Source of the DNA: an uncultured virus (IMG/VR IMGVR_UViG_3300029705_006209)
Lineage: Duplodnaviria > Heunggongvirae > Uroviricota > Caudoviricetes
DNA length: 64,000 nt
Virus record (IMG/VR): IMGVR_UViG_3300029705_006209
Strand: one strand, 5' to 3'
This document shows, piece after piece, positions 20,505-59,300 of the stretch. Within the stretch, counting starts at the first letter, position 1, and the number at the start of each line of letters is the position of its first letter. The notes beneath the pieces are model-generated. The model made no database searches and was not told the DNA's origin. It was given only the letters and a program-made list of their open reading frames with translations. A program made the position numbers and the translations under genes.

Positions 20505-20680
20505 CTTTATTGGACACGGGAGAATTGTCCGCGCAAAAACCTCCCAACTTAAAAAAGTTTTCACCAAAGTGAAGACTTTGCAAAGCTGAGAGGTTTGTGT
20601 TGCCAATCAAGTCTTTGCAAAAATTAAAAAGAGGGCAAATTGCTCTCTTCTTAATACGCAAAACTTAATAAGCTGCATTC

Positions 20681-20709
20681 ATATTATCCTTTTTAGAGGG
20701 GAGTGTCAA
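20681..20709 (-). promoter_or_regulatory. sigma70 promoter pointing toward the CRISPR array
   Basis: TTGACA-17-TAATAT on the minus strand. Confidence 0.65.
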
Positions 20710-30037: not shown

Positions 30038-30521
30038 TTTGTTTCCTCTTGATGTTTTCTCTGTTTGCGGATCTGAGCATCATCAGGAGCATTTCTGATG
30101 CGGAGCGCTTTCTGATGATACGCCGGGCCTTTTTCACTGACATAAGCTTTGTATATGCGCCTCCGAGCATTTCTTCCGGGCAATATACGCCAACATGGAA
30201 AGGGATGTCCGTTCGCACTTCATCAAACACTGCTTTTGGCATGACATAGTAGTTGTAGTCGCCAAGCATGTTATGTCCGTGACCAGATCTGAAGTCTTCT
30301 ACGGACGACTTGACCTCGTAGCAATAGAAGTCCCCACGCTCGATACCGCCTGCTGTGTTGTTCACCGGGTCGAATCGCATATAGTCTACACGCACTGCAT
30401 GGCTAGTTGCGTAGTCGAACGTCACTTCCTTTGCCCAATATATGCGGGTATCTCCATTGCCGAGCAGGTCTTTTTCTACAAGGGCAGACAGCTGTTTTGT
30501 TGTTTCAGGCCTTGTTGCCAT
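29985..30521 (-). CDS. putative PD-(D/E)XK nuclease-fold protein
   Basis: EVT..RVDY..YEVKSSVEDF motif. Confidence 0.6.
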   Translation of the reverse strand: MATRPETTKQLSALVEKDLLGNGDTRIYWAKEVTFDYATSHAVRVDYMRFDPVNNTAGGIERGDFYCYEVKSSVEDFRSGHGHNMLGDYNYYVMPKAVFDEVRTDIPFHVGVYCPEEMLGGAYTKLMSVKKARRIIRKRSASEMLLMMLRSANRENIKRKQNGINNKSAIIDRSSSAE

Positions 30522-32083: not shown

Positions 32084-32262
32084 CAGTACGCCTTTGCCTG
32101 GTGTTCTATTTATTTGCGTATCGTCTCTTCGGAAATGTGGCCTATAGTCTCTACATAGTAGGAATGGTTCCATAGCTGGCCTTTCCACAGGTCGTAAAGG
32201 CGCATTCCTCTCGGCAATGGAATTACCGAGGATCCTGCGCGTCTATCCTGAAGACAATGTAC

Positions 32263-36874: not shown

Positions 36875-37013
36875 ACAAAAAGCCCGCCACCAATCCAAAA
36901 GCGGATTGACAGACGGGCTCGTCACACCATAATATATTAGATGCGATGAAGAGGGTCCCACGAGCCCGCTTCTTCTTCGGTCATCGCCTGTTGCCGCAGG
37001 CGGTGGCCGTTTT
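36875..37013. promoter_or_regulatory. structured leader/attenuator with embedded antisense promoter, copy A
   Basis: Homologous to 53744-53880; terminator hairpins on both strands; internal TTGACA. Confidence 0.7.
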
Positions 37014-42396: not shown

Positions 42397-43824
42397 TTAC
42401 GGTATATTTTTATCGTCACGCGCCGTTTCTCCGGCTGCGTTTTTCTGCGACATCATCTTTCTGTACCACTGATATGCTTCCTCGGCCCTTTCCTTGCGGC
42501 ATGAACAAAACATTCCTCCATCTGTATATCCCTCGTCCCTGCAAGCATTGCATAGATATGTTCTTGTAAGGTAGTCTTCCGGACGGCCCGACTCAACAAG
42601 AAGACGCTTCTTTTCTTTTTCCAGAAAGATTCTCTTATCGCGAAGCTTCTGCTTCTTTTCTTCTCTCCCCGGGCCTGGCTTCATACCGATTATTCCGCGG
42701 TTCAGTTCCATTTCGGCATCCAGAAGCTCCCTCATTCCCGGAATGCCGGCTTTTACTTCGTCGAGATGACTTGCCTGTTCCTGCTCATATTTTTCCTTGA
42801 TATATCCATAGTAGTCTTTAAGCACTTTTTCGCTTACCTTTGCTTCCGGCTTTTCCGGCTTATTCTCTTCTGTTTTTGAAGCAGGATTACCCGGATCCTG
42901 ATACAAAGGCGCTGATGTTGCTGCCGAACTTTCAGCGGTGATTCCGCCCCTTTTGAGCTCAATTTTCTTCAGTATCTTGGCAACAAAATTTAGTGATGGA
43001 TTTCTGAGCCCTGCAGTCGACCTGCATGCATCAAGAATGTCCTTGAGTGCGTATCCGTCCTCGTTCAGCCACTTGTCGATCATCTCCCTTTCAGCCGGCA
43101 TAGGTGCTCTGGTAAGACTCAACTCTCTGAAGATCTGCTTGTAGACTCCGTTCTTCAGATCATGTTCATCCATGAGTGATTTGGCCTGTTCAACGGTCTC
43201 GCACCCGGCTTCTTTCCAGTTGCGGGCAACCGTTGTTATATATCCCGCATTGCATTTTTCAATGCCAAGACTGGCAGAGTATTCTATGGCAAAATCAAGC
43301 ACATCCGGATCGATTCCGTAATCGATAATAGCTGCCTTAAATGATTCCGCCTCTTTTCTCGATATAGTCCTTCCCGTCTGGTTCTGATACTTCTCCAGAA
43401 TTCTTCTCAGATGATGATTGATCAGCTTTGAAGATGTATCATCTGACATGCCGTCGGTCGCCGCATCGCCGCTTGCAGCAGTTCCCTGCGGAGTATCCGA
43501 CGCCTTCCCGTAGAGCATATCTATCTGGCGGATAAACTCGATGCTGGCTTCTCCGAACTGCCCCGAATTTACGATCCTGACGAGTCCTTCTTTCTCCCAG
43601 TACTTCCATGCATCGAGAAGCTCCATTTCCGTCAGACCCAAAGTATGAGCCATCTGAACCGTGTCGATCTCCATATGGCACTGAGAGTACATCTGCCCGA
43701 AGATGAACACCTTAACGTAATTGCCCGGTGCTTTTGGCAGCATCTCGTTTATAAAGAAATTTTCGATTGTTGTTCCGTACAGAAATACATCCCTGCATTC
43801 TTCTGTTTTTATACGCATTTCCAA
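42397..43824 (-). CDS. DnaD-domain replication protein with C-terminal Zn-binding region
   Basis: TTIENFFINE..APGNYVKV, DnaD repeats (YITTVARNW, FVAKIL), and CNACRDEGY..CSC. Confidence 0.8.
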   Translation of the reverse strand: MEMRIKTEECRDVFLYGTTIENFFINEMLPKAPGNYVKVFIFGQMYSQCHMEIDTVQMAHTLGLTEMELLDAWKYWEKEGLVRIVNSGQFGEASIEFIRQIDMLYGKASDTPQGTAASGDAATDGMSDDTSSKLINHHLRRILEKYQNQTGRTISRKEAESFKAAIIDYGIDPDVLDFAIEYSASLGIEKCNAGYITTVARNWKEAGCETVEQAKSLMDEHDLKNGVYKQIFRELSLTRAPMPAEREMIDKWLNEDGYALKDILDACRSTAGLRNPSLNFVAKILKKIELKRGGITAESSAATSAPLYQDPGNPASKTEENKPEKPEAKVSEKVLKDYYGYIKEKYEQEQASHLDEVKAGIPGMRELLDAEMELNRGIIGMKPGPGREEKKQKLRDKRIFLEKEKKRLLVESGRPEDYLTRTYLCNACRDEGYTDGGMFCSCRKERAEEAYQWYRKMMSQKNAAGETARDDKNIP

Positions 43825-43902
43825 CGTCTCCCCGGAAGTGTGTTTTTTGATACGCTTAACCGATAAAATGTATTCGTATACTTGACGATAATTAATTACT
43901 GT

Positions 43903-45879
43903 TTAGCTTAGGTCGAGATCTTCCATGTTGTAGTCCGAAAAATGAGATTCGATGAATGCCTTGCGAGGCGCCACGTCCGTGCCCATGAACAGATCAAACG
44001 CAGATTCCATAGCCTCAGCCTCCGAATCGGTGATTCGGACGAGTTTTCTTGTTCCCGGAGTGATGAATCTCGCCATCATCTCAGCATCATTCTCTCCGAG
44101 TCCCTTCGAGCGCTGTATGGTAAGCTTCTTAGGGTCCTTCCCTGCTATCAGAGCATCTCTTTCCGCATCACTGAACGCGTACAGCGTTTCTACTTTCTTC
44201 CCCGTTCTATCTGTTATCTCGAACAGCGGAGTCATCGCGTAATAGAGATATCCCTTCTCGATGAGCTGTGGACACAGTCTGTGTATCATAGTAGTTACAA
44301 GACAGATGATATGCATTCCATCCACGTCCTGATCTGCCGTGATTATCACCTTATTGAACCTGAGCCTTGACTCATCAAACTGAGGTATGTCTTTTGGAAG
44401 CTTCTTGCCTCTTACTTCTACGCCGCAGCCAAGCACGCGGATAAGATCCATTATGATGTCTGATCCAAATACGCTCTGAAGCGATGCCTTCTGGATATTG
44501 AGGATCTTCCCTCTTATCGGCATAAGAGCCTGGTAGCCCGGGTCTCTTGCAGTAATAAGACTTCCGGCAGCAGAGTCGCCCTCCACGATGAAAAGCTCCC
44601 TCTTTTCCGGGTCCTTCTCCCTGCAGTCGACGAACTTCTTGACCTTGTTGGTAACGTCGACCTTCTCCATCAGCTTCTTCTTGACCGTGATGCGCTGAGT
44701 CTCTGACTGCTCGCGGCTTCTTTTATTTATAAGGACCTGCTCGATGACCTTGTCGGCTTCAGGCTTATGCTCGATGAACCACACCTGCATATTCGTCCTG
44801 ATGAGATCAGCGAGGAATTCCTGTATATACTTATTATTGATGGCCTTTTTCGTCTGATTCTCGTACGATGTCTGCGTCGAGAATGAATTCGTAACGAGAA
44901 TAAGGCTGTCCTGTATGTCCCCGAAGGTTACTTTGGCTTCCTTCGCCGTATACTTGCCTCTCGATTTGATTTCCTTGTCAAAGGCGGCGACCATAGCCTG
45001 CTTCACGGCTTTATCCGGAGATCCGCCGTGTTCAAGAAACGAGGAGTTGTGGAAATACTTCAATGTCTGCGTCTTGTTGCTGAAGCAGAATGCGATATCC
45101 GCCTTGACAGAGTATTCGTCTCTGTCTGCCCTGTCTCTGCCCTTGCCTTCGCCGGAGAAGATAAAAGGCGTCGTCATGGCTTCTTCATTTGCCAGTTCTT
45201 CGACATAGCCCTTGATGCCATCCGGGTAGATGTAGTCAAACGTCTCGCCTGACTCCTCGTCCGACAGTGTGAATCGTATGCCGGCATTGACGATGGCCTG
45301 CTGCTTGAGCATCTCCTGGATGCGATGAAGAGGAATATTCACATCAGTAAAAACTTCGTCGTCCGGCTTCCAGCGCTGGACTGTTCCCGTCTTACGTGAC
45401 TTGGTCTTGACTTTTTTGAGTTTGCCTTTCGCAACGCCCTTCTCATAGTGCATCGAATAATCATAGCCATCGCGAGTTGACGTTACATCAAACCACTCCG
45501 AGGCATACTGAGTTGCAGCAGAACCGAGTCCGTTAAGACCAAGAGAATAATCATAATTAGAATCAGAATATTTTCCGCCAGCGTAAAGTTCCTCAAAAAC
45601 GAGCTCGTGATTATAGCGCTTCTCCTTTTCATTCCAGTCCATCGGAATGCCACGTCCATAATCTCTGACCTGAATCGAGCCGTCCTTGAATCTGGATACC
45701 TCTATCTTCTTGCCGTGCCCGGACTTCGCCTCGTCAACGGAATTACTGATGATTTCAAATACGCCGTGAATGCAGCCTTCCAGATCATCAGATCCGAAGA
45801 TAACTCCCGGACGTTTTCTGACTCTATCTGCCCCCTTAAGTGCGGATATACTTGAATTATCGTATGCTTTCTTTGCCAC
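43903..45879 (-). CDS. type IIA topoisomerase subunit B (GyrB/ParE-like)
   Basis: EIISNSVDE, DYGRGIP, GLNGLG (GHKL ATPase), VEGDSA, PIRGKILN, DQDVDG (TOPRIM), KGLGE. Confidence 0.95.
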   Translation of the reverse strand: MAKKAYDNSSISALKGADRVRKRPGVIFGSDDLEGCIHGVFEIISNSVDEAKSGHGKKIEVSRFKDGSIQVRDYGRGIPMDWNEKEKRYNHELVFEELYAGGKYSDSNYDYSLGLNGLGSAATQYASEWFDVTSTRDGYDYSMHYEKGVAKGKLKKVKTKSRKTGTVQRWKPDDEVFTDVNIPLHRIQEMLKQQAIVNAGIRFTLSDEESGETFDYIYPDGIKGYVEELANEEAMTTPFIFSGEGKGRDRADRDEYSVKADIAFCFSNKTQTLKYFHNSSFLEHGGSPDKAVKQAMVAAFDKEIKSRGKYTAKEAKVTFGDIQDSLILVTNSFSTQTSYENQTKKAINNKYIQEFLADLIRTNMQVWFIEHKPEADKVIEQVLINKRSREQSETQRITVKKKLMEKVDVTNKVKKFVDCREKDPEKRELFIVEGDSAAGSLITARDPGYQALMPIRGKILNIQKASLQSVFGSDIIMDLIRVLGCGVEVRGKKLPKDIPQFDESRLRFNKVIITADQDVDGMHIICLVTTMIHRLCPQLIEKGYLYYAMTPLFEITDRTGKKVETLYAFSDAERDALIAGKDPKKLTIQRSKGLGENDAEMMARFITPGTRKLVRITDSEAEAMESAFDLFMGTDVAPRKAFIESHFSDYNMEDLDLS

Positions 45880-45888
45880 GTGCTTCTC

Positions 45889-46167
45889 CTATCTGTTGAC
45901 TGCGTCTTTCAGCCCTTTTCCGGCAGTGAATTTAACCCCTTTCTGAGCCGCAACCTCATGCGTCTCTTGCGGTCGCTTCGGGTTTCTGCCGATTCTTGCT
46001 TTTCTCTCCACGACTTCGAATTTACCGAAGCCGACAAGTTTTACACTGTCTCCAGCCACAAGCGCATCCTCAATTGCATCAAGTATTGCATCGACATATT
46101 TTTCTGCCGTCCTTTTATAATCATGCGTTTTTTCTGCGCATGCAGAGACCAATTCCCGTTTTGTCAT
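45889..46167 (-). CDS. hup: HU family DNA-binding protein
   Basis: MTKRELV..LVGFGKFEV..ARIGRNP..F.AGKGLKDAVN. Confidence 0.93.
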   Translation of the reverse strand: MTKRELVSACAEKTHDYKRTAEKYVDAILDAIEDALVAGDSVKLVGFGKFEVVERKARIGRNPKRPQETHEVAAQKGVKFTAGKGLKDAVNR

Positions 46168-46415
46168 TTTAACGCTCTCCTTTTTGTGAACTTATGTTTA
46201 TATTATATTCAAAAAGCATTGAAAAATCAAGCATTTGAGCTCCCAAATCGGCCAGCGTGATTTTCAATATTAATGCACTCCCTCGTCCCTTTGCCTGATT
46301 ATCTCCCCCGCTTGTGCGGGATAGATGATACCCTGTGGGCGCCGGGAAAGGTGCTTAAATACCAGTAGGTTTGCACCTATATATTATCATAGGTAGACTC
46401 CTATAAACAAGGCCT

Positions 46416-46853
46416 CTACTCAAGAAACATCTGGTAGCAAACATCCTTCTTGTACACGCCTTTAAAGCATATTTTCGTATACCCTGCGATAGCCTCTTTG
46501 ACCTCGCTCTCGAGCGGCATACGGTATTTCTCCTGTACCGTGCGCGGAAGTGCAGCCGGAACATACAACGCACCGGCAACGCCGCGAACCATTTTCTGCC
46601 CGCCGAAGACAGCTTCATTGATAAGAGATGCTAGAACCGATTCCAGCGGAGTCACACGGAGCGAGACTTCAAGATATCTCTCAAGCGGAATGCTAGGGGC
46701 CTCTTTGCGCCAGCGCCTTTCTATTTTTTTTGCCTTGCTTTCAGGTACCGCTGCGTACAGTCTTTTAAGGGCGTCCTCTCGGACCTCAAAATCCGAAAAG
46801 TACAGCCCGAGACCATAGATCATATTAGTTTCGCTTTTCATAAAAATCGCCAC
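46416..46853 (-). CDS. hypothetical protein overlapping the end of the ddmE-like gene
   Basis: AGGAG RBS; 29-nt overlap with the upstream gene. Confidence 0.6.
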   Translation of the reverse strand: MAIFMKSETNMIYGLGLYFSDFEVREDALKRLYAAVPESKAKKIERRWRKEAPSIPLERYLEVSLRVTPLESVLASLINEAVFGGQKMVRGVAGALYVPAALPRTVQEKYRMPLESEVKEAIAGYTKICFKGVYKKDVCYQMFLE

Positions 46854-48459
46854 TCCTCTGCACTTTCATCCATTCTTTCAAGTATTTGAAAGGATACGGA
46901 TATTTTGTAAATCTGTTGCCCGCATTTATATAAGTGACACATACATACGGAAGCAGCCACTCATAACTTTCAGGCGCTTTATACTCTATAAGTTCAATTA
47001 TCTTGTCGGCCTTTGCTATCTTTGGTTGCATTCCACTGCCTATTATTGAAGAGTAATAAAACTTGCGTCCTTTCTTTTCAAAAATGTGCGCATCAAGGAT
47101 GCCGCCCATAATATCGTTGCGGAATTCCTGTCCTCTGACTTTTCCCTCCTTTTCAGCGATCACGCTCCACGCTGTCTCTGATGGCAAAGGAGTCATATCT
47201 GTATCACGAAGCCCGATTACAGCACCATTTCTTAAGATGAAGAGGGATTCATTCGCAAACAAAACTTCTTCCGGAACCCATTCAGGCGGTAACAATGTAT
47301 CAAAAGAACCAAACTCAAGATATATGCCCGCCTTCTTAACGTAATGACACGTGCCCTCTTCCTTGAGAATGAAGACCGCCATATCATCGAGAGAATTCAT
47401 ATAACCAGAAAAGCTATCAATAGAGCCAGCTACATCCTGTTTTATAGCAAGCTCTGTGAGACACGCTCTGGCCAATGTCTTGAGCGTCAGCCCCCTTTTA
47501 CTGCCTCTTGCTTTTTCATATAACGGTCTTGTTAAGTGCTGGACATCAAGAGACGCCTCGTAAACATCTTCCCCTTCCTCATAACTGTCCTTCTCTTCCA
47601 CAAGCATTACCTTGCAATTGCCATTACACGGAATGCCGTACAATCCTGAGAATTCTGGAACATCTACAAGATCTGCACCAAGCTTAAAATGTTCATGAAT
47701 ATTAGCATCAAGCATGTCACGATACTTTGTCGCTCTTTCCCCCCTGAAAACAGCAACGTCTTTCAGAGAATCAAATGTGACCTTTACAAAGCCACCGAAT
47801 CGGCCATTAATCTTGTCAACGATTAGGCTGATTATTGCCACCCGCGACATGAGATAGCCTGTATCCGTTGAATCGAGGTATGCAAGCGAATCAGCCTTGT
47901 AGCCAGGAATACCCTTTCTAACGTAGCAGATCCCTTCCGCACGCTTCACCTTTTTCATTCTTCCTTTTTCGTACCTGTATATCGGAACACTTTTATGGTA
48001 ATCCGGGTCATATCTGACAAAGCGCGTCGAATGTACGGTCAGAACGTTGTCTCTGCTGACCCATATTTCGGGGATATCTACAACATCAAGCAGTTGCTCT
48101 CCTTTATAGAATAACGCGGGAGGAATATAGTAGTTCTTGCCTGAAAGGGTCGCAAAGCCAGCATCCCTGCAGACGGCATTGATCAGAAGCTTAAGAGGAA
48201 AATCCTGAGTTGCTGATATAGTAGAAAAAGAGATGTTTTTCGCTTCCAGCCTGTCTCGGATTTCGCGCTGATTATGTTTAGACATAATATAAAGGGATAT
48301 GTTGCCTTTGGTCCCCGTCCCGCATGAAGCCTCGAAATCATCGAGATCGTCAAGTCTGTTCCATAGCGTCTTATCAGCAGACACCTTGTAGACACAGTAT
48401 TCCTTAAAGAATTCCGGAGACACTTCCACCAAAAGCCTGTTAACACGGACCTCGTTCAT
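46825..48459 (-). CDS. putative DdmE-like Argonaute-related protein
   Basis: TAATG-coupled to the helicase-nuclease. Motifs TLSGKNY, VQHLT, ELAIKQD and C-terminal YPYPFKYLKEW resemble DdmE homologues as I recall them; no search run. Confidence 0.62.
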   Translation of the reverse strand: MNEVRVNRLLVEVSPEFFKEYCVYKVSADKTLWNRLDDLDDFEASCGTGTKGNISLYIMSKHNQREIRDRLEAKNISFSTISATQDFPLKLLINAVCRDAGFATLSGKNYYIPPALFYKGEQLLDVVDIPEIWVSRDNVLTVHSTRFVRYDPDYHKSVPIYRYEKGRMKKVKRAEGICYVRKGIPGYKADSLAYLDSTDTGYLMSRVAIISLIVDKINGRFGGFVKVTFDSLKDVAVFRGERATKYRDMLDANIHEHFKLGADLVDVPEFSGLYGIPCNGNCKVMLVEEKDSYEEGEDVYEASLDVQHLTRPLYEKARGSKRGLTLKTLARACLTELAIKQDVAGSIDSFSGYMNSLDDMAVFILKEEGTCHYVKKAGIYLEFGSFDTLLPPEWVPEEVLFANESLFILRNGAVIGLRDTDMTPLPSETAWSVIAEKEGKVRGQEFRNDIMGGILDAHIFEKKGRKFYYSSIIGSGMQPKIAKADKIIELIEYKAPESYEWLLPYVCVTYINAGNRFTKYPYPFKYLKEWMKVQRSGDFYEKRN

Positions 48460-51400
48460 TATCTCTCCCCCTCTTCATCTGTATATCCATAATTTGCAAT
48501 AGCATCCGGGTGCTCGCCTATGAATTCCGCGATTCGAACGAGCCTTTCATGAAGCACGATACCTTCTCTGGTTACAAGACCGCGCACAAAAAGTACTGGC
48601 CTTTCCCAGTCGTGTCCTTCCCTCAGCAAGTCACCCCTAATAGCCTTTGTCTCGCAGCCTCTGCGATCCCCGTCATCGATCATGTTGACGTAAATGGCGG
48701 CAGAAGCGTCCGTTCTGTCGAGTTTGAATGCTATATTGCGAAGATGCTTATCGGCATTGTATCCTGCCGGAGCAGCACCTGCAGGATATGCTTCCGGCGT
48801 AAGGTTCTTGGCATCAATCGGCATGTGATCACAGACAAAGTCGTACATTTCATAGATGTTTTCATTTCTGATAGATTCAATGCTGCAATTCGCAAGGAGA
48901 GCCTTAAGAGCCTCTTCTCCGAGCGCGCCCATATATATGTTAATCATAAGGCCCGGCGACATCACATATTCCCCTTCACCCCACTCTGTTTCATAGCCAT
49001 GTTTCTCAAAATAGCTACGGATTTGCGGAACGAGCATAAGCGTATCAAGATTAGTCGCCTCTGACGAAATCCGTCTGAATCCCTTCTTTTCAGAAAGTCT
49101 TATTTCTATGTTGCTCAGGTCAAATCTGTAATAAGCGTTATCGGTTTTAAGATAAAACGGCTTTATCCAAGAAAACTCGCCTTCAAAATCAGCTTCCTTC
49201 GCTATTGGATGCATGAGAACAAACAGGCGAAGGGCCTCATATCTGATAATCTTCTTCAGGTACCAGATATTGCCTGTTCCGATCTCCCCATAGTCGCGGT
49301 TGATGTGATTAAGCACCTCGGTAGCACGGTTACTGAGGTATATCTCCGTCCTGTCGTTTGCCGATCCGATACTGGTCGCCCGCGCCGCTATATCTTCAAG
49401 GAGCATTCTCGTATGAGGGTTGATGTTTTTCTTGCGCAAAAGATACTGTGATACGTAATCTGAACAAAGACGGTCTGCCAGGTCCTCATCATAAAGGTAA
49501 AAAACCTTCGGTCTTTTGTATGGTGAGCGCTCCCCTCGACCTGTAAGCTGTATGAGAATGGAAAGAACAGCAGCCTGATAAGAAGGCCACTTCTTCTGTT
49601 CTGCCGCAGATATGAAGCCACGGCTCATGCATTGATATATCAAGTCTCCTCGCTGAGAGTTGCTGATCTCGCCTTTCTGATAAAGCTCTTCAATTATGTA
49701 AAGCTGCTCTACAAGCACCTCCATCTTAAAGTCCTTCTTCAGATCCTGTGATGGAAATGTGTTTGTTATGTCTGGGAGATACATAAAGTCGATATCAACC
49801 TTTACCTGCCCCGGATATGTCCGTTTTTCATCCGCAACTTGCACGTATCTTCCTTCACTCATGTCAAGCGGGTAATTGAGATTCTGCCCTGTTCCTGCGC
49901 CCTGCGAAGTAGCAAAGAGGAATACCCTTTCCCCTTTTGACAGAAGCGACATTATCTCAGACCATATGGTCTCGAGCGTCTCGGCATTGGCAAACAGAAT
50001 ATTCACGGATGGGTCGATTGCATGAAGTATATCCAGGAACAAGACCTGGCGCGCATCACTCCCATCACTTAGTTTTTTCCCGTAGTCTTTTTGCGTAAGA
50101 GCAAAGCCCATCGTCTGTTTGTTTTCGGAATAAACGCTGAACGCTTGCACAATTTTAAGAAGCCTTTTGTTCTCATATTTAGGGTCCTTATCCTTGTCTG
50201 TAAACATCTCAGCAAGTCTGTTGCATCCGATAATAATATCCTCCGGAAGCTGGGACAGAGCGGACCCTAACGTAACCGCGAACGTCTGGAAATCAACACT
50301 CTCGATATTTTTGAAGCGCCCAAGCTGCACCTCATTGATCAGATCTTCATCCTCATCATCGGGAAGACAGACCGGGATGTTACAGCTCCTGATCCAGTCG
50401 TAATTATAATTGCCTATCACGCTATCCAGATCGGCAGTAGCGGACAGACCGATCACCAGACATTTATCCGCAATGGTCGCCAAAATCTCCTCCGGCGTTA
50501 TGTCTATATTTAAGGTGTCTATCGTATTCCTTTCAGAATCCCAATCCTTCAAACTCGGAATCGAAATGCTCATCCCGTTTGAATATATGGAGCTTACAGC
50601 AGGCATAATACCCCGCTCTACGGAACCCTTTTTGATTAATCTATCCGAGATGTAGTCGAATTCACTGCCGTTTTCTATGTTCAGCATATGAAGGTATGAT
50701 GCTATATTGCTCCTCTCATACGCGCTGTCATACGGGTGATTCCTTTTAAGCTTTAGAGGCTCCAGAAAATACGGAGCGCTGCTGATAAAATGTGTAATAT
50801 ATCCGGACAGCCCAGATGATGCATCTTTGAGCCATGTCCAGGCTTTCTCCTTGAGTTCATCACTGTCTTTCGCTCTTTTAAATTCCTCATTCGTTATGAG
50901 ATCAATAAAAGTTGAAGCGCCCCGGCTTTCAAAAGTAAGATTATCGTTAGTAAATCTGTTATACGGCACCTCCATTATTATGTGCCTTTTAGAAGAAACG
51001 GAATCGAGACACTTCTGAGAAAACTCTCTGAGAGTAGTCAATTCCCCAAATCTCTTCTCGTAACTCTCAAGAAGCTTGCGGGATGTCTCAAGGCGTTCAA
51101 GCATTTTCCTTTTCTTTTCCGGATCACGCTCTTTATCAATAACCGCTTGAAGCCGCTCTTTTGTAAAGTTTAATTTGATAAGAAGAGCAACTTTGAAATT
51201 ATTGTGCACTTGAGTTGTGAGAAGTTGGTCTCTGCAAGAAACTTTTGATTGGTCGATTTCATCAATAACAACAATTCCGCCTAATGAACGGATATGGTTA
51301 TAGAGATACGATGAATCGCCCATCATGTTGTCGCATTGCGAATTCTTCTTCGCTTCTGTTGCAAACACAATCGGATAGCGACCAAGTCGTGTCTTATTTA

Positions 51401-52127
51401 TGTTGATAAACGGATATACATCTGCTACCCATTTGTTGTCTGAGATAAACGCGTCTATTATCTCCTGCGAGTAACCGCCGTTTATCTTTTTCGTGCCGTT
51501 CTCAGAATAATTCTTCGCGTATTCTCGGAGTTCGTTCTTTACGAACAGGCGCATTTCACGCTCGGCGTCATACACTGCTTTTGTACGGAAATCCGCTTCT
51601 TCCGGATATACATTTTTCTTATATTTCTCCCACTCTTTTTTAAGCTTGTTGTAATATGAATCGAACAGCTTATAATCTTTGGCTCGCAGCTTACACTCAC
51701 GAAGACTCTTCCCCATCTTCTTTGAGAGAAATGGCTCCCATGCCTCTATATAGTTTTTTAAAGGAAGCACCGATTTTTTCAGGTCATTATATTCTTTTTT
51801 TGTCAAGTCGCCGTTCTCATGCATCTTATCTGCTTCTCTAAGGAGATTATCGATAGGCTCGCTGAGATTGTTTTTTCTCGCTGTTATGAACCACACGCGC
51901 ATTCCGTTAAGCCACATTCGAATGATAGCGTGAACCACACCATGAGATTTTCCGCTGCCTGTTGGCGGCGGAACCAAAAATATTCCTTCAGTCATCCTCC
52001 CAACAGCTTTAAGTATGATTTTGGTCTGGACGTTTTCATATTCTGCGATTTCGTCATATATCAAAGGCAGAGCCATCTGAAAAGACCCATCATCTGCTGT
52101 TGATAAACCTTTCTTTCTCTTTGCCAT
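48459..52127 (-). CDS. SF2 helicase-PD-(D/E)XK nuclease fusion, DdmD-like
   Basis: PTGSGKS, VIDEID, GLSATA, GTGQNL, QLTGRGER helicase motifs; C-terminal NIYMGALGE..EMYDF..IDAKN nuclease motif; 1222 aa. Confidence 0.78.
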   Translation of the reverse strand: MAKRKKGLSTADDGSFQMALPLIYDEIAEYENVQTKIILKAVGRMTEGIFLVPPPTGSGKSHGVVHAIIRMWLNGMRVWFITARKNNLSEPIDNLLREADKMHENGDLTKKEYNDLKKSVLPLKNYIEAWEPFLSKKMGKSLRECKLRAKDYKLFDSYYNKLKKEWEKYKKNVYPEEADFRTKAVYDAEREMRLFVKNELREYAKNYSENGTKKINGGYSQEIIDAFISDNKWVADVYPFININKTRLGRYPIVFATEAKKNSQCDNMMGDSSYLYNHIRSLGGIVVIDEIDQSKVSCRDQLLTTQVHNNFKVALLIKLNFTKERLQAVIDKERDPEKKRKMLERLETSRKLLESYEKRFGELTTLREFSQKCLDSVSSKRHIIMEVPYNRFTNDNLTFESRGASTFIDLITNEEFKRAKDSDELKEKAWTWLKDASSGLSGYITHFISSAPYFLEPLKLKRNHPYDSAYERSNIASYLHMLNIENGSEFDYISDRLIKKGSVERGIMPAVSSIYSNGMSISIPSLKDWDSERNTIDTLNIDITPEEILATIADKCLVIGLSATADLDSVIGNYNYDWIRSCNIPVCLPDDEDEDLINEVQLGRFKNIESVDFQTFAVTLGSALSQLPEDIIIGCNRLAEMFTDKDKDPKYENKRLLKIVQAFSVYSENKQTMGFALTQKDYGKKLSDGSDARQVLFLDILHAIDPSVNILFANAETLETIWSEIMSLLSKGERVFLFATSQGAGTGQNLNYPLDMSEGRYVQVADEKRTYPGQVKVDIDFMYLPDITNTFPSQDLKKDFKMEVLVEQLYIIEELYQKGEISNSQRGDLIYQCMSRGFISAAEQKKWPSYQAAVLSILIQLTGRGERSPYKRPKVFYLYDEDLADRLCSDYVSQYLLRKKNINPHTRMLLEDIAARATSIGSANDRTEIYLSNRATEVLNHINRDYGEIGTGNIWYLKKIIRYEALRLFVLMHPIAKEADFEGEFSWIKPFYLKTDNAYYRFDLSNIEIRLSEKKGFRRISSEATNLDTLMLVPQIRSYFEKHGYETEWGEGEYVMSPGLMINIYMGALGEEALKALLANCSIESIRNENIYEMYDFVCDHMPIDAKNLTPEAYPAGAAPAGYNADKHLRNIAFKLDRTDASAAIYVNMIDDGDRRGCETKAIRGDLLREGHDWERPVLFVRGLVTREGIVLHERLVRIAEFIGEHPDAIANYGYTDEEGER

Positions 52128-52236
52128 TTTGAAGCGCTGCTCCTTTCTTGTGATTCATTTCTGCTCTTTGCACTTCTCTTAAATCTCGAAATTAAGACTT
52201 AGCCTATATATTTCCTATTGATTGATTTCGCGCAAA

Positions 52237-53052
52237 TTATTGGCGTCTGCTTTTCTTTACGTATGAAAATCCCTCATACGGCATTCCGTTAGCTCTTTGA
52301 TCAGCGAAGATATCTGAATCATCCATAACCTTTACTCCGCCAAGAATCAATCGGTCATCTACAATTTCGCCCATGTCGATGCCCTTTTCGCGAGCTCTTT
52401 TCTGGCGGTTTTTGTCTTTTTCGTCAACAGCCGTATTTTGGGTGAATGGGTTCAGATACTCTATGCCCTGGTTCCGTAAGTCTCTTATTATTTCCCGCTG
52501 GTCCTCCATGCTCCGGTCATTAAAATAATGTTTGAATACATGGTTTACATAATTGCCATTGCGTATACGTATATCCGTAGCAAAGAACTGAATGCCGACA
52601 ACAACAACCGTATTGGAAATAGTCATGGCGTCTGTATACGGGTGTCCGTCATGCCTAACAACAGATATTTCAGGATCGATTCTGAAAAGGTCGCGATATA
52701 TGCCGTCGACCCAATGTCCGGGGCCGATGTTGTGAATCTCGAGTATTTCAGGAATTGGAGCTTCCTGTTGGAGACACCGGAAATGTCCATCTCTGGACAT
52801 TTTTACAAATGCATGCTCTTTTGATACTACGATTGCCTTCCGGTAAGACTGTGCATTTACTGCATACCAGTTGTTGTGGAAAAGCACATACGCCCATTTT
52901 TCTGGCTGCGGCACAACCGCCTTACACTCTTCCAGAGTTGGATAGCCGTCATCAAAAATATAATTGGCCACAAAATCCGTTCTCTTAACGAGTCCCCTTG
53001 CGGGATTCCTGACATCGTTCCAGATCACAGCCCGGCATCTGCATCCAAACAT
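52237..53052 (-). CDS. hypothetical protein
   Basis: GGAGGAG RBS; lies between the PIN gene and the ddmD-like gene. Confidence 0.7.
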   Translation of the reverse strand: MFGCRCRAVIWNDVRNPARGLVKRTDFVANYIFDDGYPTLEECKAVVPQPEKWAYVLFHNNWYAVNAQSYRKAIVVSKEHAFVKMSRDGHFRCLQQEAPIPEILEIHNIGPGHWVDGIYRDLFRIDPEISVVRHDGHPYTDAMTISNTVVVVGIQFFATDIRIRNGNYVNHVFKHYFNDRSMEDQREIIRDLRNQGIEYLNPFTQNTAVDEKDKNRQKRAREKGIDMGEIVDDRLILGGVKVMDDSDIFADQRANGMPYEGFSYVKKSRRQ

Positions 53053-53061
53053 TTTCTCCTC

Positions 53062-53607
53062 CTATTTCATAAACCTCTTCATCAATCTGACCGCCAACGG
53101 TGTACGTTCAGCTCTGATCTTTTCCGAAAAGAGCTGTTCGATCTGCTCATATATTTCTCTGCCGGCTTCTTCTCCGAAAGCCTGCTCAAAGTACAGTTTA
53201 AGAACATCAAGCCCGCAATCTCCTGAAAAACCGTGCCTTACGAGCGCATCGATCATAGATGTTTCAACATAAACGTCGCACAAAGGGAATCTCTGCTGGA
53301 GCTGCTTCCCGAATACTTCAAAGTGCTTGTCGGAGCTAATAAGGATTATCGCCTGCTTCTCACGCGCCTTAGCCTTGACCGCAGCATCCATAGCGATCGC
53401 GAAGTCCACTGCGTTATCTCCCTGCTGCACAAGATGGAACTTAACAGGCGCTCCGCTTCTGTGCTCGAGCTCTTCGCGGTTTTCCGGGCGTCTGTAGTAT
53501 TTGTCAGCAGAGCTGTAAAATACGTGTATCTGGTCGCTCTTTGTGAGCGCTTCAGCCCCAGTCGTTCGTGTTCCGTGGGTGTTATCACCGTCGATATATA
53601 TGAGCAT
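53062..53607 (-). CDS. PIN/NYN-domain protein
   Basis: IYIDGDN, NAVDFAI and ISSDKHF acidic active-site pattern. Confidence 0.8.
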   Translation of the reverse strand: MLIYIDGDNTHGTRTTGAEALTKSDQIHVFYSSADKYYRRPENREELEHRSGAPVKFHLVQQGDNAVDFAIAMDAAVKAKAREKQAIILISSDKHFEVFGKQLQQRFPLCDVYVETSMIDALVRHGFSGDCGLDVLKLYFEQAFGEEAGREIYEQIEQLFSEKIRAERTPLAVRLMKRFMK

Positions 53608-53743
53608 TTTGGTTTCCTTTCTTGAAGCAACAGGCGGCACAGGTGGTGAATACTTATGAAGATTGTTGCCTTTTGCTCTGCAAATCGATAACGTGTGATT
53701 GCGTGCCGCCTGCTGTCAGCATGTTTATTGCCGACTTTCGCAT

Positions 53744-53880
53744 ACAAAAAGCCCGCCGCCAATCCAAAACCGGATTGACACGCGGGCTCGCAACACCTTA
53801 AAATAATAATTGCGATGAAGAGGGTGCTTAGAGCCCGCTTCGTCCGGCTGTCACTTGCGCCAACAGGTGGCAGCCTTTTT
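53744..53880. promoter_or_regulatory. structured leader/attenuator with embedded antisense promoter, copy B
   Basis: Homologous to 36875-37013, with compensatory changes. Confidence 0.7.
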
Positions 53881-54056
53881 ATATTTTCATTGCGTGTATA
53901 TGTTAGCACAAAACCGTTGAAAAATCAAGGTTTTGGCGTCAACGCTCAGGTCAGTGTAGCCCCAACCAGGCCCATCTAAGTCGATCCCAGTCCATACCTG
54001 AAAAAATAATTTTCTGGAATTTCGAGCAACACCCGCCTAACTGGCGTACTTTAAAA

Positions 54057-55007
54057 TCACTTCTCCGTTTTCGCGTTGGTTCTTGCCGCCCACCTGGCGT
54101 TCATTTCTTCTTCCTCGCCTGCTTTCAGTCTCTGCTGCTCTTCGATGAAGTGCATAAAGTCTGGTGTATGAGGACATACCCCCACGACTTCCATACAGTA
54201 TGAAACGCCCCTGAGAACCCCTATCTCGTTTGCCAGATGAATAGGCACGCCCCCCTCATTCTCGAAGAATTCACAGTTTCTGAGTGTGCGAGCAAAGATA
54301 CCTGTTATGGTAGTATCAGCCGAGGACAGCGATGTACCAAAGGAAACTGGTTCCGCATCCTCTGAATCATAGTCCGAAGGCTCCTCGCCTATCAGCTCAT
54401 CTATTCCGTATTCGTAAAGAAGAGAGTTGAAATCGGATGCGCAATACTCAAGGGCCTCATCCCATCTGAAGTAGTTATCTTTAAGTCTCGCGATAAAATC
54501 GGTAATAAAATCTGCAAGACTCCCGGATTTCGGATCATACATCACGCCCACCTGAAAGAAAGGACTGCCATAGTGCTCAAAACCTGTGTAGAAGTCCACG
54601 GCAGTTCCTCCCTCGCCATCATCGTGCACTATTGTTCTTATAAGTGCTCTTGGGAAATCTGGAACCTGATGGTACTTCGCAAGACTCTCTATATTGCCGA
54701 CAGGAATGTACATGTCATACACCTGCCCCTTTATGAGATGAAATGGCTTGTCTTCCTCTCTCTCACGCGAGAAGGATCCCTTCTCCCCTGGTTCCCAGTC
54801 GTTTTTCTCAAACTCACTTTTTATCAGCGCCCTTTCGATCGCATCTAAGATCATCGGCATTGAATATGCCGGCGGCTGGCTTCTTCCCGTCTCCCAGTCA
54901 CGGTAAGTATTAGCCGGAATATCAAGCTTAACCGCAAACTTCTCTGCGGACAGCCCCGTTCTTTTTCTTTCTTTTTTCAGCTGTTCACTGAAAGTAATTT
55001 CAGACAT
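54057..55007 (-). CDS. XRE-HTH protein with unknown C-terminal domains
   Basis: FSEQLKKERKRTGLS..TYRDWETGRSQP; AAGGAGG RBS. Confidence 0.8.
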   Translation of the reverse strand: MSEITFSEQLKKERKRTGLSAEKFAVKLDIPANTYRDWETGRSQPPAYSMPMILDAIERALIKSEFEKNDWEPGEKGSFSREREEDKPFHLIKGQVYDMYIPVGNIESLAKYHQVPDFPRALIRTIVHDDGEGGTAVDFYTGFEHYGSPFFQVGVMYDPKSGSLADFITDFIARLKDNYFRWDEALEYCASDFNSLLYEYGIDELIGEEPSDYDSEDAEPVSFGTSLSSADTTITGIFARTLRNCEFFENEGGVPIHLANEIGVLRGVSYCMEVVGVCPHTPDFMHFIEEQQRLKAGEEEEMNARWAARTNAKTEK

Positions 55008-55215
55008 TTTCTCCTCCTTTTTGGCATAGTAAACTTCTCTCTTATAATATACACCGAATAACACATAAAATCAATATACATTACACCGAAAACCGTGGTA
55101 TGGACGGCTGCAGTATCTTTATTTTAACCACCCACACGTCACATCTGACGTCTTTACTACCCAGAAAATTCGTGTTATTGTTTGCTTATCCACATTAACA
55201 GAAAGGAAAACTCTA

Positions 55216-56280
55216 ATGCTATCCAAAGAAGACGACAAGATCATAAATACTTATGTTGATCCTGATAAATTCGACATCGAAGCTCTCCGAAGATATGTAA
55301 GCAGGCACGAGAATATCGAAGGAGATGTCTTTGCTGAATGCTGTCCTTCGGAGGCTGATGCAAACCCTTATCACTGGCCGGCATGCCTGCCGCTGAACAA
55401 TGAGTATCTGCCCGTCGACAGAGCTACCTTCATCCGCAGGATACCTTTCTACTTTTACACTCACCCCGAATACAATGTCTGGGGAAGTCTGTCATGGACT
55501 CTTTCATCGATAAAAAGCGAGCTTCTTGACCCGGCTGCAAGCCTTGCAGAAAAAACATCTCTGCTTGAAAAGGTTTATGGCGAACTTGAATTCATGTTCT
55601 ATGACAAGGGTTTCTCTCTTGAAGACATCTTCTCATATATCCCGAGCCAGTACGGTGTTGTAAGCGGCCCCTTCCTCTCCTGGGCGGAATACATTCATCT
55701 TTGTGATGAGCTTGGCTTGGATGACTACTTCCCTGAATCATTCATCTCATCATATAACCGGGCACTGGAAGCAGTAGGAAAAAGCCCTGTCATATATAAG
55801 ATAAATCCGGTGCTTACTTACTCATCAGAGTGCTTTTACCGCAGGGGGAGAGTCTTTACCTTCGAAGGGACATTCCCTGTAGATGAGAATGGCGATCCGG
55901 TGATCAGATGGACGAACCTCAGGATCGAAAATGCAGAAGAAATCTCCTGCACCACAAAGCAGTCACATGACGGCTCCCTGTTTGTAACAGTTACCCCCGA
56001 GACAATGATCGAAGCATGCGACATTTACGGTGATGATGCTAACGCTGTATATGTCCTTTATGCAGGCCCGAAACACCTTGATTTTGACAACACAGCACTA
56101 AGGCGCCTCAGGAAATCAAGAGGATATACCCAGAAAGAAGTGGCTGACGCAATAGGTGCTTCCGTCAGGACATATCAGAAATGGGAAAGCGGGGTCACCA
56201 CCCCTGACAGCAGATATATGCTGAGGCTTCTTAACTGGCTCGATATATCAGATCCGGTCCTGCTTTCAAGAGTGATCTGA
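55216..56280 (+). CDS. protein with C-terminal XRE-HTH domain
   Basis: LRRLRKSRGYTQKEVA..TYQKWESG. Confidence 0.8.
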   Translation: MLSKEDDKIINTYVDPDKFDIEALRRYVSRHENIEGDVFAECCPSEADANPYHWPACLPLNNEYLPVDRATFIRRIPFYFYTHPEYNVWGSLSWTLSSIKSELLDPAASLAEKTSLLEKVYGELEFMFYDKGFSLEDIFSYIPSQYGVVSGPFLSWAEYIHLCDELGLDDYFPESFISSYNRALEAVGKSPVIYKINPVLTYSSECFYRRGRVFTFEGTFPVDENGDPVIRWTNLRIENAEEISCTTKQSHDGSLFVTVTPETMIEACDIYGDDANAVYVLYAGPKHLDFDNTALRRLRKSRGYTQKEVADAIGASVRTYQKWESGVTTPDSRYMLRLLNWLDISDPVLLSRVI

Positions 56281-56291
56281 GAACAAAAAAA

Positions 56292-56332
56292 TTCCAACAT
56301 AGTCATCATCGTGCGAAATGACTATGTTGGAA
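56292..56332. terminator. intrinsic terminator between convergent genes
   Basis: Perfect 15-bp stem TTCCAACATAGTCAT/ATGACTATGTTGGAA. Confidence 0.7.
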
Positions 56333-56353
56333 CTCAAAATGACTATATTGAAC

Positions 56354-59300
56354 CTACTTGACGTTTCCTTCTCCAAGCAGCACAGTCATCTCATTTCTGA
56401 GATAATCATTTATGCGAACCCTGCATTCAGGAGCGGACACCCTGCATGTGCCGTCCGGAAGATACAAACGAATATCCGAATTGCCCGGAAACCGCTTTGC
56501 AACGCTGTCAATCAAAGAAAGAAGCATCGGCAGTCCACCGTATTCCTCGACGGCAGCTTCAGTAATTCGAAGCTTCAGTATGCGTTCAGAAGCATAGGCT
56601 TTCCTCGAGGTGCGAGGCTTAACGGTTTCGATCAGTTCCTGACTGTTTATGTCCATTATTTCTTCAAGAAGAAGCTCTGCGGAGCCTTCGTCCTTTTCGC
56701 TGACTTTTCCTCTGACTGCCACGATAGCATCTTCAGTTACGTAATTTCTGCGTTTTTCGTACAGCTTAGGAAAAACTATGCAGTCAACAGTTCCCACGTA
56801 ATCCTCAAGTGTAAACCTTGCCATTTCCTGCTGTTTCTTGGTAAATATGTGCCTTACGGAAGAAATAATGCCGGCAAGAACGACAACATCTCCGTCATGG
56901 AACCGCGCATTCGATATGACTGCCGTTTCCTCTGCGCCGTCAGCTGCGACATTGGCATTAACATCGGTAGTCACTGCGTCCGTAAGCCCTTTTATTACGG
57001 TCTCATACTCATCCAGCGGATGCCCCGTAAGATATGTGCCGAGCATTTCCTTTTCTTTTGCGAGTCTTATATTTTTCTCAAAGTTCCTGACGTTCGGTAA
57101 AGCATGTCTTTCCGGTTTCTCATCTTCAAACCCTTCCATCTGGAACAGGCTTATCTGATCTTTCGCCCGCGTCCTTGCCCTTTTCTGTGCCTGCTTTACG
57201 GCGTCCTCGCTTACAGCAAGAAGCTGCGCCCTGTTAGGATTTATGTCATCAAAGGCCCCGGATTCAACAAGAGATTCTATCGTTCGCTTGTTGAGTTCTT
57301 TCGCTTCGATATGATCGATGAAGTCGTAGAAGTCATCTCCATCACGGAAGTCTTTCCTTGCATCAAGAATAGCCCTGACGGGTCCTTCGCCAACATTCTT
57401 AACTCCGATAAGCCCGAATCTGATCCGTCCGTTTTCGGCTGTAAATTTTGCAGAACTCTTGAGAACTGATGGCGGATCAACCGGCACGCCCATATCCTTA
57501 GCATTCCTGACATATGAAGATATGAACTCTGCTTTTCCGGCCATGCTTGTCATAAGCGCCGCAAGAAACTCCGCCGGATAATGTGCCTTAAGATATGCTG
57601 TTTGATAAGAAATGACAGCATATGCGGCAGCGTGGCTTTTGTTGAAAGCATAAGCGGCAAAGGTCACCATGTCGTCAAATATGGCTTTAGCCGCCTCCTC
57701 GGATACTCCGTTTGCTATGCAGCCTGGTATTTCTACGTTGCCGTTATCATCTTTCTTGCCGTAGATGAAGTATTTCTTCTCCTCAAGCATTACCTGCGCC
57801 TTCTTTTTAGACATGGCACGGCGAACAAGATCCGAGCGTCCGAACGAATAGCCGCCGAGATCTCTTACTATGCTCATAACCTGTTCTTGGTATATTAAAC
57901 ACCCGTATGTTACATCAAGGATGTGTGAAAGCTGCGGATCTACATACTGTATGTTTTCCGGATGCCTCTTGTTTTCAAGGTACTTCGGGATAGAATCCAT
58001 CGGGCCCGGTCTGTAAAGGGCTATGCCCGCAATTATATCTTCGAAGCAGCTCGGCTTAAGCTGTTTCAGGAAGTCGGTCATTCCACCGCCCTCAAGCTGA
58101 AAAACGCCTGCGGTGTTACCTGAAGATATGAGCCGGTATACTGCCGGGTCGTCGAATCCGATCTTGTTCCAGTCTATTTCAACGCCGTGATTCTTTCGTA
58201 TCATCTGAAGGGCGTCTTCAATTACAGTAAGGTTTCTGAGCCCCAAAAAATCCATTTTCAGAAGTCCGAGCTCTTCGATTGTCGTCATGTTGAACTGTAC
58301 GGCAAGTCCCTTGTCCGACGCATAAAGCGGCACATAGTTCTCCAAAGGTTCTCTGGATATTACTACGCCCGCTGCGTGTTTTGACGCATTCCTCGGAAGG
58401 CCCTCAAGCATTCTCGATAAATCGATGACCTGTTTTACCAGAGGCTCCCTTTCATAGCGCTCTCTAAGCTCCGGATTGAGCTCTAGCGCCATGTCTATGG
58501 TCACGTCCTTGACGTTTGGAATCGCCTTTGCGATCTGATCTCCCTCCTGGTATGTCGCACCGAGAACTCTGGCAACATCCCGCACCACGGCCTTCGCCTT
58601 CAGCGTTGTGAACGTGATAATACCCGAAACTTTATCCTTGCCATACTTTTCCGTTACATAGTCGATGACTTCCTGACGTCTGTCGATGCAGAAGTCGACG
58701 TCTATATCCGGCATGCTGACACGCTCCGGGTTGAGGAACCTTTCGAATACGAGAGAATACCTGATCGGATCAAGCTCTGTTATAGCAAGGCAGTACGAAA
58801 CGATGCTTCCTGCAGCTGAGCCTCTGCCCGGACCGACCGGAATACCGTTGGTTTTAGCGTAGTTGATGAAGTCCCAGACAATAAGGAAATACTCCACAAA
58901 GCCCATGCTTTCGATCGTAGAAAGCTCTGTTTCAAGACGCTTTCTCAGGTCAGATGCCGGATCAAGGGCCTCTTTGCCGTATCGTCTTTCAAGACCGGCA
59001 TAGCAGAGTTTTCTCAGATATTCATCACATGTCATTCCTTCAGGCGGATCGTATTTTGGAAGACGGTAATTGCCGAACTCGAATTCGACATGGCATCTGT
59101 CCGCGATCTCCTGTGTTCTGTGGACCGCATCTGGTATGTCCGGGAAAAGCTCCAGCATCTCAGCTTCAGACTTGAGATAGAACTCATCATTCTCAAAGCG
59201 CATTCGGTTCTCATCAGTTACCTTCGCCTGAGTCTGGATACACATAAGAATATCCTGCGCCTTTGCATCGCTGCGTCTAAGATAATGCGCATCATTCGTG

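Follow-up and report, generated by a model that had tools for sequence, protein, structure and literature searches.

A probable two-gene DdmDE-type defense cassette with a compact Argonaute in a large animal-gut element

The DNA considered here is a window of 64,000 nucleotides from an uncultured virus (IMG/VR record IMGVR_UViG_3300029705_006209), and all coordinates below are positions in this window. The analysis covers positions 46416..53607 and their surroundings, where two adjacent genes encode relatives of DdmD, a helicase-nuclease, and of the Argonaute DdmE. The pair is an intact, highly diverged DdmDE cassette, and a new architectural variant of a known plasmid-elimination system. It can be held with good confidence that this is a two-gene DdmDE-type defense cassette, which lies in a variable spot of the element, and that the genes flanking it are not parts of the system. 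The features of the region are as follows.

53062-53640, minus strand: PIN7/NYN-domain gene (192-aa open reading frame, ORF; 53062..53607, 181 aa, from the ATG at 53607), assigned by Pfam; upstream flank of the cassette.
52237..53052, minus strand: 271-aa gene with no family assigned; conserved upstream flank of the cassette.
52128..52236, minus strand: 109-base spacer 5' of ddmD, within the cassette; possible promoter or leader of its own.
48459..52127, minus strand: ddmD-like gene, 1222 aa, SF2 helicase with a C-terminal PD-(D/E)xK nuclease; recognized by PADLOC and by solved DdmD.
46825..48459, minus strand: ddmE-like gene, 544 aa, a compact, INS/DID-less Argonaute of the long-C type, predicted to be catalytically inactive; recognized by the family hidden Markov model (HMM) and by the AlphaFold2 (AF2) fold.
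46416-46853, minus strand: 145-aa ORF, or 46416..46823 as a 135-aa gene, with no family assigned; downstream flank of the cassette.
46827..52270, minus strand: variable cassette that takes in ddmD and ddmE, with the leader of 109 bases and the final ~11 codons of the 271-aa gene; delimited by contig comparison.
53744..53844, minus strand: repeated intergenic element of ~100 bases, containing a terminator-like hairpin and T-run, 5' of the PIN gene.

The larger protein of the pair is, from its sequence, a distant but clear homologue of DdmD. It matches the PADLOC DdmD model at 3.5e-25 and the solved chains of Vibrio cholerae DdmD at 4.7e-22, in two stretches (residues 230-580 and 730-1098); the portion in between, 580-730, fails to align by sequence with the V. 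cholerae protein, and should hold the hairpin that binds DdmE. The helicase motifs are present as GSGKS (57-61), DEID (289-292), SATA at 562 (SAT, 562-564), and GRGERS at 863, and the match to Pfam ResIII is weak (0.015). In an alignment (A6) of 17 rows, formed by this protein and its homologues, three of which share 50-51% identity and the others 17-20%, the Walker A, DEID, SAT, and motif VI (Q860/G863/R864/R867) positions are invariant. The same is true of the nuclease residues E1071, E1093, D1096, D1105, and K1107, found in 17/17 rows, which correspond to the residues E1059, E1082, D1085, D1100, and K1102 given for the V. cholerae nuclease in the account of Loeff et al. (10.1101/2024.05.10.593530); the first three were matched by alignment, and the D1105-x-K1107 pair was assigned by motif. 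With these motifs intact, and with both PADLOC and the solved DdmD in agreement, the SF2 helicase and PD-(D/E)XK nuclease of DdmD type that the preliminary description had read in this gene are borne out. Among plasmids, the protein finds only two weak matches, in Francisella and Nostoc.

The smaller protein (544 aa) is, on the combined evidence of family profiles and a predicted fold, a DdmE-family Argonaute. A word-indexed search with this protein recovers four proteins, which are its own sequence, two others at 53% and 48% identity, and P0004 (678 aa; 1.8e-6), which acts as a bridge, given that P0004 itself matches the PADLOC DdmE model at 1.1e-5. A profile of four sequences, P0004 among them, matches solved DdmE at 1.4e-17 and, in an exhaustive search of representatives, finds 730 proteins at E <= 0.001, of which 510 reach E <= 1e-10, with family members ranging from ~510 to 745 aa in length. 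The family alignment (A3) has 114 rows, formed by 111 of the 150 best-listed representatives of the 730, together with the window protein, P0002, and P0003; the 39 rows left out are mostly fragments or late-starting matches, with a few full-length ones dropped by hand under no strict rule, which leaves a sample with a bias toward the query. The resulting profile matches solved DdmE of Lactobacillus casei at 1.3e-69 and of V. cholerae at 2.3e-44. As a control for circularity, an HMM of the 104 rows that remain after removal of the window's own clade and P0004 matches the window protein at 2.1e-50, covering residues 2-251, 279-367, and 406-535.

The AF2 model built from A3 (pLDDT 93.9, pTM 0.92) has the predicted order N-L1-small PAZ analogue-L2-MID-PIWI. 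In a Foldseek comparison of this model with the Protein Data Bank (PDB), DdmE chains occupy all of the first six ranks (1.2e-21 to 1.0e-13, TMq 0.59-0.74), the best of which have TM values of 0.70-0.74; these are followed by TtAgo, PliAgo, KmAgo, and hAgo1, at 1e-5 to 3e-7 (TtAgo at ~3e-7, with TMq of ~0.4). Identity to solved DdmE in the structural alignments is 12-15%. The six residues that, in the account of V. cholerae DdmE cited above (10.1101/2024.05.10.593530), form the pocket for the guide 5'-phosphate and Mg2+ (Y363, Q376, E401, K405, K674, and E678) are all kept, in the same order, as Y293, Q307, E336, K340, K525, and E529, an equivalence that was read from the profile alignments and from spacing. 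These positions are conserved in 107, 112, 97, 114, 114, and 113 of the 114 rows, respectively. The C-terminal motif PFKYLxE is also present. Over the PIWI part (residues 345-544), D456 (84%) and E529 (99%) are the only conserved acidic positions in the 114 rows, so that, from residue conservation, no DEDX set is apparent. The preliminary description had anticipated a MID-PIWI fold of the DdmE/pAgo type in this protein, and such a fold is what the model, Foldseek, and the family profile all indicate, with the MID pocket intact.

The two genes are arranged as a tightly linked pair. At 48459, the stop codon of the 1222-aa gene and the start codon of the 544-aa gene share one base (TAATG), with the purine-rich ribosome-binding site GAGGGGGAG upstream, which makes translational coupling of the two genes plausible, as the preliminary description had proposed. 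That description placed the pair among five co-oriented ORFs, of 192, 271, 1222, 544, and 145 aa, all of which do lie on the minus strand in the positions it reported. The PIN and 271-aa genes are nine bases apart, and are followed by a gap of 109 bases (52128-52236) before the 1222-aa gene, so this pair is not tightly joined to ddmD. At the other end, an ATG at 46823, two bases past the stop of the 544-aa gene, would give a protein of 135 aa in place of 145 aa, and is probably the true start, hence no overlap with the 544-aa gene is needed; the likeness of one relative's contig (X17) to the window ends exactly at 46826. Of the operon shape first described, the coupling of the 544-aa gene is plausible, and the overlap of the 145-aa ORF with this gene is probably absent.

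The boundaries of the cassette emerge from related elements. The stretch is found in metagenome runs from animal feces and gut (24 rows, 19 studies), nine rows of which hold at least half of the sampled words. The contigs of four runs (X9, X12, X13, and X17) were compared over 43000-57000, with 10 further runs, which have word shares of 0.08-0.14, left out; stretches without cover in X12, X13, and X17 were not counted as evidence, save for the bridged joint described here. In X9, the DdmDE block is present in identical pieces. In the other three of the four runs, which come from three studies, matches extend over 43000-46207, 46366-46733 (to 46826 in X17), and 52271-53826, with nothing in between, and each matching piece has 24-60 differences (~92-98% identity); the X17 contig has 36 differences and four gaps over 46366-46826. 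A contig of 50,018 bases from X13 joins 46733 to 52271 through 7911 other letters. The right junction, at 52271, leaves the last 11 codons of the 271-aa gene within the cassette, and P0154, a homologue of the 271-aa protein with 96% identity, differs exactly in its C-terminal tail. No flanking direct repeats of more than eight bases were found at the junctions.

This arrangement bears directly on the extended system of the preliminary description, in which all five genes would act together, with the PIN/NYN RNase and the 271-aa and 145-aa proteins aiding DdmDE in guide generation, an abortive response, or self-protection. All five genes are co-oriented, with spacings of nine bases, 109 bases, a one-base overlap, and about two bases, no terminator-like site is predicted between them, and a terminator-like hairpin lies 5' of the PIN gene. 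They are also of similar rarity, given that the family of the 271-aa protein has only seven homologues (46-96% identity), and the compact DdmE and DdmD clades have three close homologues each (48-53%). Against this, X12, X13, and X17 keep the PIN and 271-aa genes, at ~98% identity, as well as the 135-aa gene, at ~86-92%, without this DdmDE, the PIN gene being covered in all three by the pieces over 52271-53826, and in one contig the place of the pair is taken by the 7911 unrelated letters. At 0.437, the GC content of the cassette is also below that of its surroundings, where the PIN gene has 0.491, the gyrB-like gene 0.485, and the 135-aa gene 0.507. Neither of the two annotated plasmid DdmDE loci inspected has a PIN/NYN neighbor, and the systems of V. 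cholerae and L. casei function as two genes in their published accounts. The five-gene system is accordingly improbable, and the claim of an extended operon is not upheld. Given their presence without this DdmDE, the PIN, 271-aa, and 135-aa genes are, by contig comparison, the conserved flanks of a variable spot, rather than parts of DdmDE. A bolder possibility, less likely than the one on INS/DID put forward below, is that the PIN/NYN and 271-aa genes form a fixed module of the hotspot, which would serve whichever cassette is installed.

The flanking genes themselves are only partly classified. The PIN/NYN identity of the upstream gene, already recognized in the preliminary description, passes both Pfam cut-offs by a narrow margin, with marginal matches to PIN7 (2.9e-8; 34.7 bits, cut-off 34) and NYN (6.3e-6; 27.2 bits, cut-off 24.2), and its start is most likely the ATG at 53607, preceded by the ribosome-binding site AAGGAAA. 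No family was found for the 271-aa protein in scans of Pfam, PADLOC, NCBIfam, and PHROGs, nor any usable match in the ESM Atlas, and its AF2 model, built from eight rows, is poor (pLDDT 52.1); an assignment as REase_II was rejected, the PADLOC score of 0.016 being noise. The same four family collections and the ESM Atlas returned no match for the 135-aa protein. No relative's locus was confirmed in genome, metagenome, or viral contigs through alignments A2 and A4 or through the 271-aa and 1222-aa queries, and tblastn of the 544-aa protein and P0009, like megablast of 40000-64000, gave no plasmid or phage match.

Several smaller features adjoin the flanks. Upstream of the PIN gene, the intergenic repeat at 53744-53844 is 84% identical over 101 bases, in the same orientation, to 36875-36975, and it holds a long GC-rich hairpin and a T-run on the minus strand, as read by eye; 82 of its bases have a second site in the contigs of the relatives. 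The repeat is likely the 5' limit of the transcription unit, and the two copies may represent a shared terminator or regulatory element. On the plus strand, 53775-53875 has a near-consensus promoter-like site, TTGACA and TAAAAT (11/12) with an 18-base spacer, and ~40 bases further on a terminator-like hairpin of 12 bp; this arrangement lies antisense to the PIN leader, has no Rfam match, and could represent a small antisense RNA. A second variable spot, at 53826-55146, is seen in X12 and X17, where 1091-1102 other letters take the place of the region with a 335-aa HTH gene (54057-55064), between two conserved sides. Over 45800-55400, the promoter-like sites (12, against 16.1 expected from shuffles) carry no weight, and there are 12 terminator-like sites against 8.0 expected; in Rfam, 45000-56500 gives two sub-threshold, chance-level matches and nothing more.

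The compactness of the Argonaute, which the preliminary description had suggested, is confirmed in two places, by the absence of one domain and the trimming of another. A domain within PIWI is described as conserved in long-C pAgos and named INS by Loeff et al. (10.1101/2024.05.10.593530), and is named DID, the DdmD-interacting domain, by Yang et al. (10.1101/2024.07.20.604412); in the solved systems, it forms half of the DdmD-binding pocket. Both solved DdmEs have an insert of ~65-70 residues at the corresponding point of the profile. In A3, this insert is found in 43 rows (645-744 aa) and is absent from 71 (513-669 aa), so that INS/DID defines the characterized subgroup, and not the whole homologous family. 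The window's own clade (513-569 aa) accounts for nine of the 114 rows, shares 17-23% identity with the ~600-aa class of INS-less proteins, and has a MID segment (250-283) of 34 aa, compared with a median of 56, a length common to only nine rows. The Argonaute of the window thus represents, on these alignments, the family's most compact form, without the module named as DdmD-binding. A non-exhaustive check of literature on DdmDE and long-C pAgos found no description of an INS-less DdmE.

The PADLOC DdmE model missed all five of the DdmE-like proteins tested that were not already known matches (P0005, P0009, P0020, a 616-aa protein of Lactobacillus intestinalis, and a 710-aa protein of Nostoc), and it matched the INS-bearing P0010. 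A broader proposition may be put forward tentatively, as one that falls a little short of an even chance. INS/DID would be an add-on of one subgroup, and a large, unannotated set of DdmDE systems, invisible to the current tools, would work without it, recruiting DdmD by way of L1, the PAZ analogue, L2, and a short helix in the place of the insert; the clade of 513-569 aa would then represent the minimal known DNA-guided Argonaute sensor with the full N-to-PIWI architecture.

The possibility of contact between the two proteins was examined by predicting, in three runs and three controls, how full-length DdmE would pair with DdmD residues 520-960. The runs scored 0.63, 0.00, and 0.64 (median 0.63), and the best of the three controls scored 0.00; of 157 solved complexes, 116 attain the mark applied to these scores, as do two of 215 mismatched pairs. 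Agreement between the runs is at least 0% of contacts, and partner pLDDT is at least 68. The predicted interface joins DdmE residues 100-122, 165-166, 199-212, and 431-438 to DdmD residues 620-653 and 686-703. By our own mapping, the DdmD part would be the equivalent of the HD2 hairpin (603-633) of V. cholerae, and DdmE 431-438 would be the short helix that remains in the position of INS. Given that DdmDE complexes have already been solved, the score may reflect likeness to them, and it supports predicted binding.

A number of points weigh against the reading of the pair as a working two-gene DdmDE cassette. Searched by itself, the 544-aa protein has no match among the Pfam, PADLOC, NCBIfam, and PHROGs families or among sequences of the PDB, and a three-row profile of its closest relatives finds no DdmE. 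The PADLOC check proposed in the preliminary description succeeds for one gene and fails for the other, the DdmD being recognized (3.5e-25) and the DdmE model giving no match to the 544-aa protein, whose link to DdmE depends on intermediate sequences and on a predicted fold. INS/DID is absent, with 18 residues between positions 430 and 447 compared with ~94 in INS-bearing relatives, which could mean that the coupling to DdmD is altered or lost, and one complex run in three gave 0.00. A diverged DdmDE could be encoded in the 7911 bases that stand in place of the cassette. Finally, a consensus scan gives neither a sigma-70-type promoter nor a terminator in the 109-base spacer between the 271-aa gene and ddmD. 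With no terminator predicted there, ddmDE could be co-transcribed with the PIN/271-aa pair, from a promoter upstream of the PIN gene.

Alternatively, the pair might be decayed or repurposed, with a DdmE that no longer recruits DdmD for want of INS/DID, the genes surviving as relics or acting in the element's own DNA transactions. Such a reading draws on the missing domain, the MID segment of 34 aa against a median of 56, the failed complex run, and the location of ddmDE among replication genes. It is opposed by the integrity of both ORFs, in which all of the catalytic and pocket residues tested are kept, and by the presence of the INS-less form in 71 of the 114 aligned relatives, which is not a pattern of decay. 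The close homologues (48-53% identity) are full-length, two of the three complex runs pass with the controls at 0.00, and the block is identical in several runs. Decay or repurposing is thus very improbable, and the two-gene defense cassette is the reading retained here.

The homology, the fold, the conserved residues, and the boundaries of the cassette are computed results, while the type of guide, the recruitment of DdmD, the range of targets, and the benefit to the element are inferred. In the mechanism proposed, the MID pocket of the 544-aa DdmE-like Argonaute would carry a short DNA guide with a 5'-phosphate, and the protein, once guided, would bind complementary DNA without cutting it. 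It would then dock the helical HD2 hairpin of the 1222-aa DdmD-like protein, a contact that, without INS/DID, would depend on L1, the small PAZ analogue, L2, and the short helix at the insertion point. Loaded onto the displaced strand, DdmD would translocate with ATP and degrade the DNA by means of its PD-(D/E)xK nuclease. The cassette (~46827-52270) sits in a variable spot of a family of large animal-gut elements that have their own replication genes, probably in Clostridia-like hosts, and would most likely remove competing small plasmids or other invading DNA. The role against competing plasmids or phages put forward in the preliminary description is likewise an inference.

In comparison with known systems, the window shares the two-gene order, D then E, with the DdmDE of V. 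cholerae (on VPI-2) and L. casei, both characterized as working with two genes in their published descriptions. Solved structures of these systems are 8u3k, 9ezy, 9bgk, 9ixm, and 9iw3. As in known DdmD, the SF2 helicase is joined to a PD-(D/E)xK nuclease with five active-site residues, and docking is predicted to involve the HD2 hairpin. As in known DdmE, the order is N-L1-small PAZ analogue-L2-MID-PIWI, with the six pocket residues, the PFKYLxE motif, and no apparent DEDX set. The Argonaute of the window differs from known DdmE in its length (544 aa, compared with 687-715), in the absence of INS/DID (~70-75 aa), and in a MID that is ~22 aa shorter, together with further small deletions. Unlike the known pairs, it is found on a large element from animal-gut metagenomes, and its DdmE escapes the PADLOC model.

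Two plasmids provide further examples of the family. A 319-kb plasmid of L. intestinalis (NZ_CP072985.1, L001; 3938-9185) and a 292-kb plasmid of Nostoc (NZ_CP117770.1, L002; 3961-9524) both have a D-then-E pair with the two products listed only as hypothetical, the DdmE-like one having 616 aa and 710 aa, respectively, and no PIN/NYN neighbor was found at either of these two inspected loci. PADLOC misses both proteins of the Lactobacillus pair, as well as the DdmE-like protein of Nostoc. INS-less DdmE-like proteins of ~570-640 aa, such as P0020 and the 616-aa protein of L. intestinalis, resemble that of the window in the absence of INS and in having a coupled DdmD-like gene upstream, where the context is known; the window's clade is shorter still, with a trimmed MID.

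The window also resembles ApsAB, an anti-plasmid system of Escherichia coli ST38, in pairing a helicase-nuclease of the ApsA/DdmD superfamily with an Argonaute-like sensor (PMC11096173). It might be supposed that the system is of the ApsAB rather than the DdmDE type, given that PMC11096173 places ApsA and DdmD in a single broad family linked by intermediates, and the DdmD of the window is only distantly related to that of V. cholerae. Its Argonaute partner, however, matches solved DdmE by both profile and fold. ApsB, by contrast, is described in that source as having no sequence similarity to DdmE and is longer (the residue N743 is cited there), and it is by this published description that the window's Argonaute, which groups with DdmE, is set apart from ApsB. 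An ApsAB-type system is, on this balance, the most remote of the explanations considered, and the DdmDE assignment is maintained. The pair is also comparable to the long-B pAgo-nuclease systems, and to other systems of an inactive pAgo with an effector, in that a predicted inactive, guide-binding Argonaute hands over to a nuclease; it differs from these systems in that the effector is a translocating helicase-nuclease of the DdmD type, and the fold matches to other long pAgos are much weaker (TMq ~0.4, compared with 0.70-0.74 for DdmE).

The carrying element encodes a DnaE-type polymerase, GyrB- and GyrA-like subunits of a type II topoisomerase, a type IA topoisomerase, and a DnaD-like loader, as well as a tyrosine recombinase (integrase), TraX, an ISL3 transposase, TnpB, and two RRXRR-HNH proteins. 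Against phage protein families, its replication proteins have very high scores, and the nearest relatives of the DnaE (~46-52% identity) are in fecal "Bacteriophage sp." contigs and Clostridia plasmids. It is plausible, from this gene content, that a Clostridia-like host carries the element as a large plasmid or in phage-like form. A chromosomal origin is disfavored, given that the phage- and plasmid-like replication genes point to a mobile element. The mobile replicon of the preliminary description is made plausible by the replication genes, the transposases, and the integrase, which fall short of proof.

Other regions of the element hold further features. A 301-aa AAA ATPase lies within 29132-30521 on the minus strand (PADLOC IetA 8e-46, phrog_3757 4.6e-63), with an overlapping 178-aa ORF upstream that matches phrog_2776, and no IetS-like protease was recognized. 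Two paralogues of 422 aa, at 4867-6135 (plus strand) and 40675-41943 (minus strand), have RRXRR and HNH domains, a pairing typical of IscB-like RNA-guided nucleases, and a TnpB-like gene at 30842-32188 combines OrfB_IS605 with a Cas12f1-like TNB. At ~19100-20700, gene orientation and AT skew both switch, with plus-strand genes before and minus-strand genes after, converging, and with a tyrosine recombinase (19103-20230) adjoining; this region could be the replication terminus, or a dif-like region, of the element. For a 1767-aa ORF at 22742-28045 (minus strand), PHROG and PADLOC give no family, and the only match is a weak one to AAA_22, over residues 1408-1543.

The published model of recruitment hinges on the INS/DID of DdmE, and an intact DdmE of 544 aa that lacks this domain offers a direct test of the contacts needed for the hand-over to DdmD, as well as a smaller scaffold for engineering. 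The current annotation of defense systems under-calls the DdmE family, given that PADLOC missed the window protein and the five others tested. The swap of the cassette reveals a variable hotspot in a family of large mobile elements of the animal gut, and provides a caution that co-oriented neighbors need not be components of a system.

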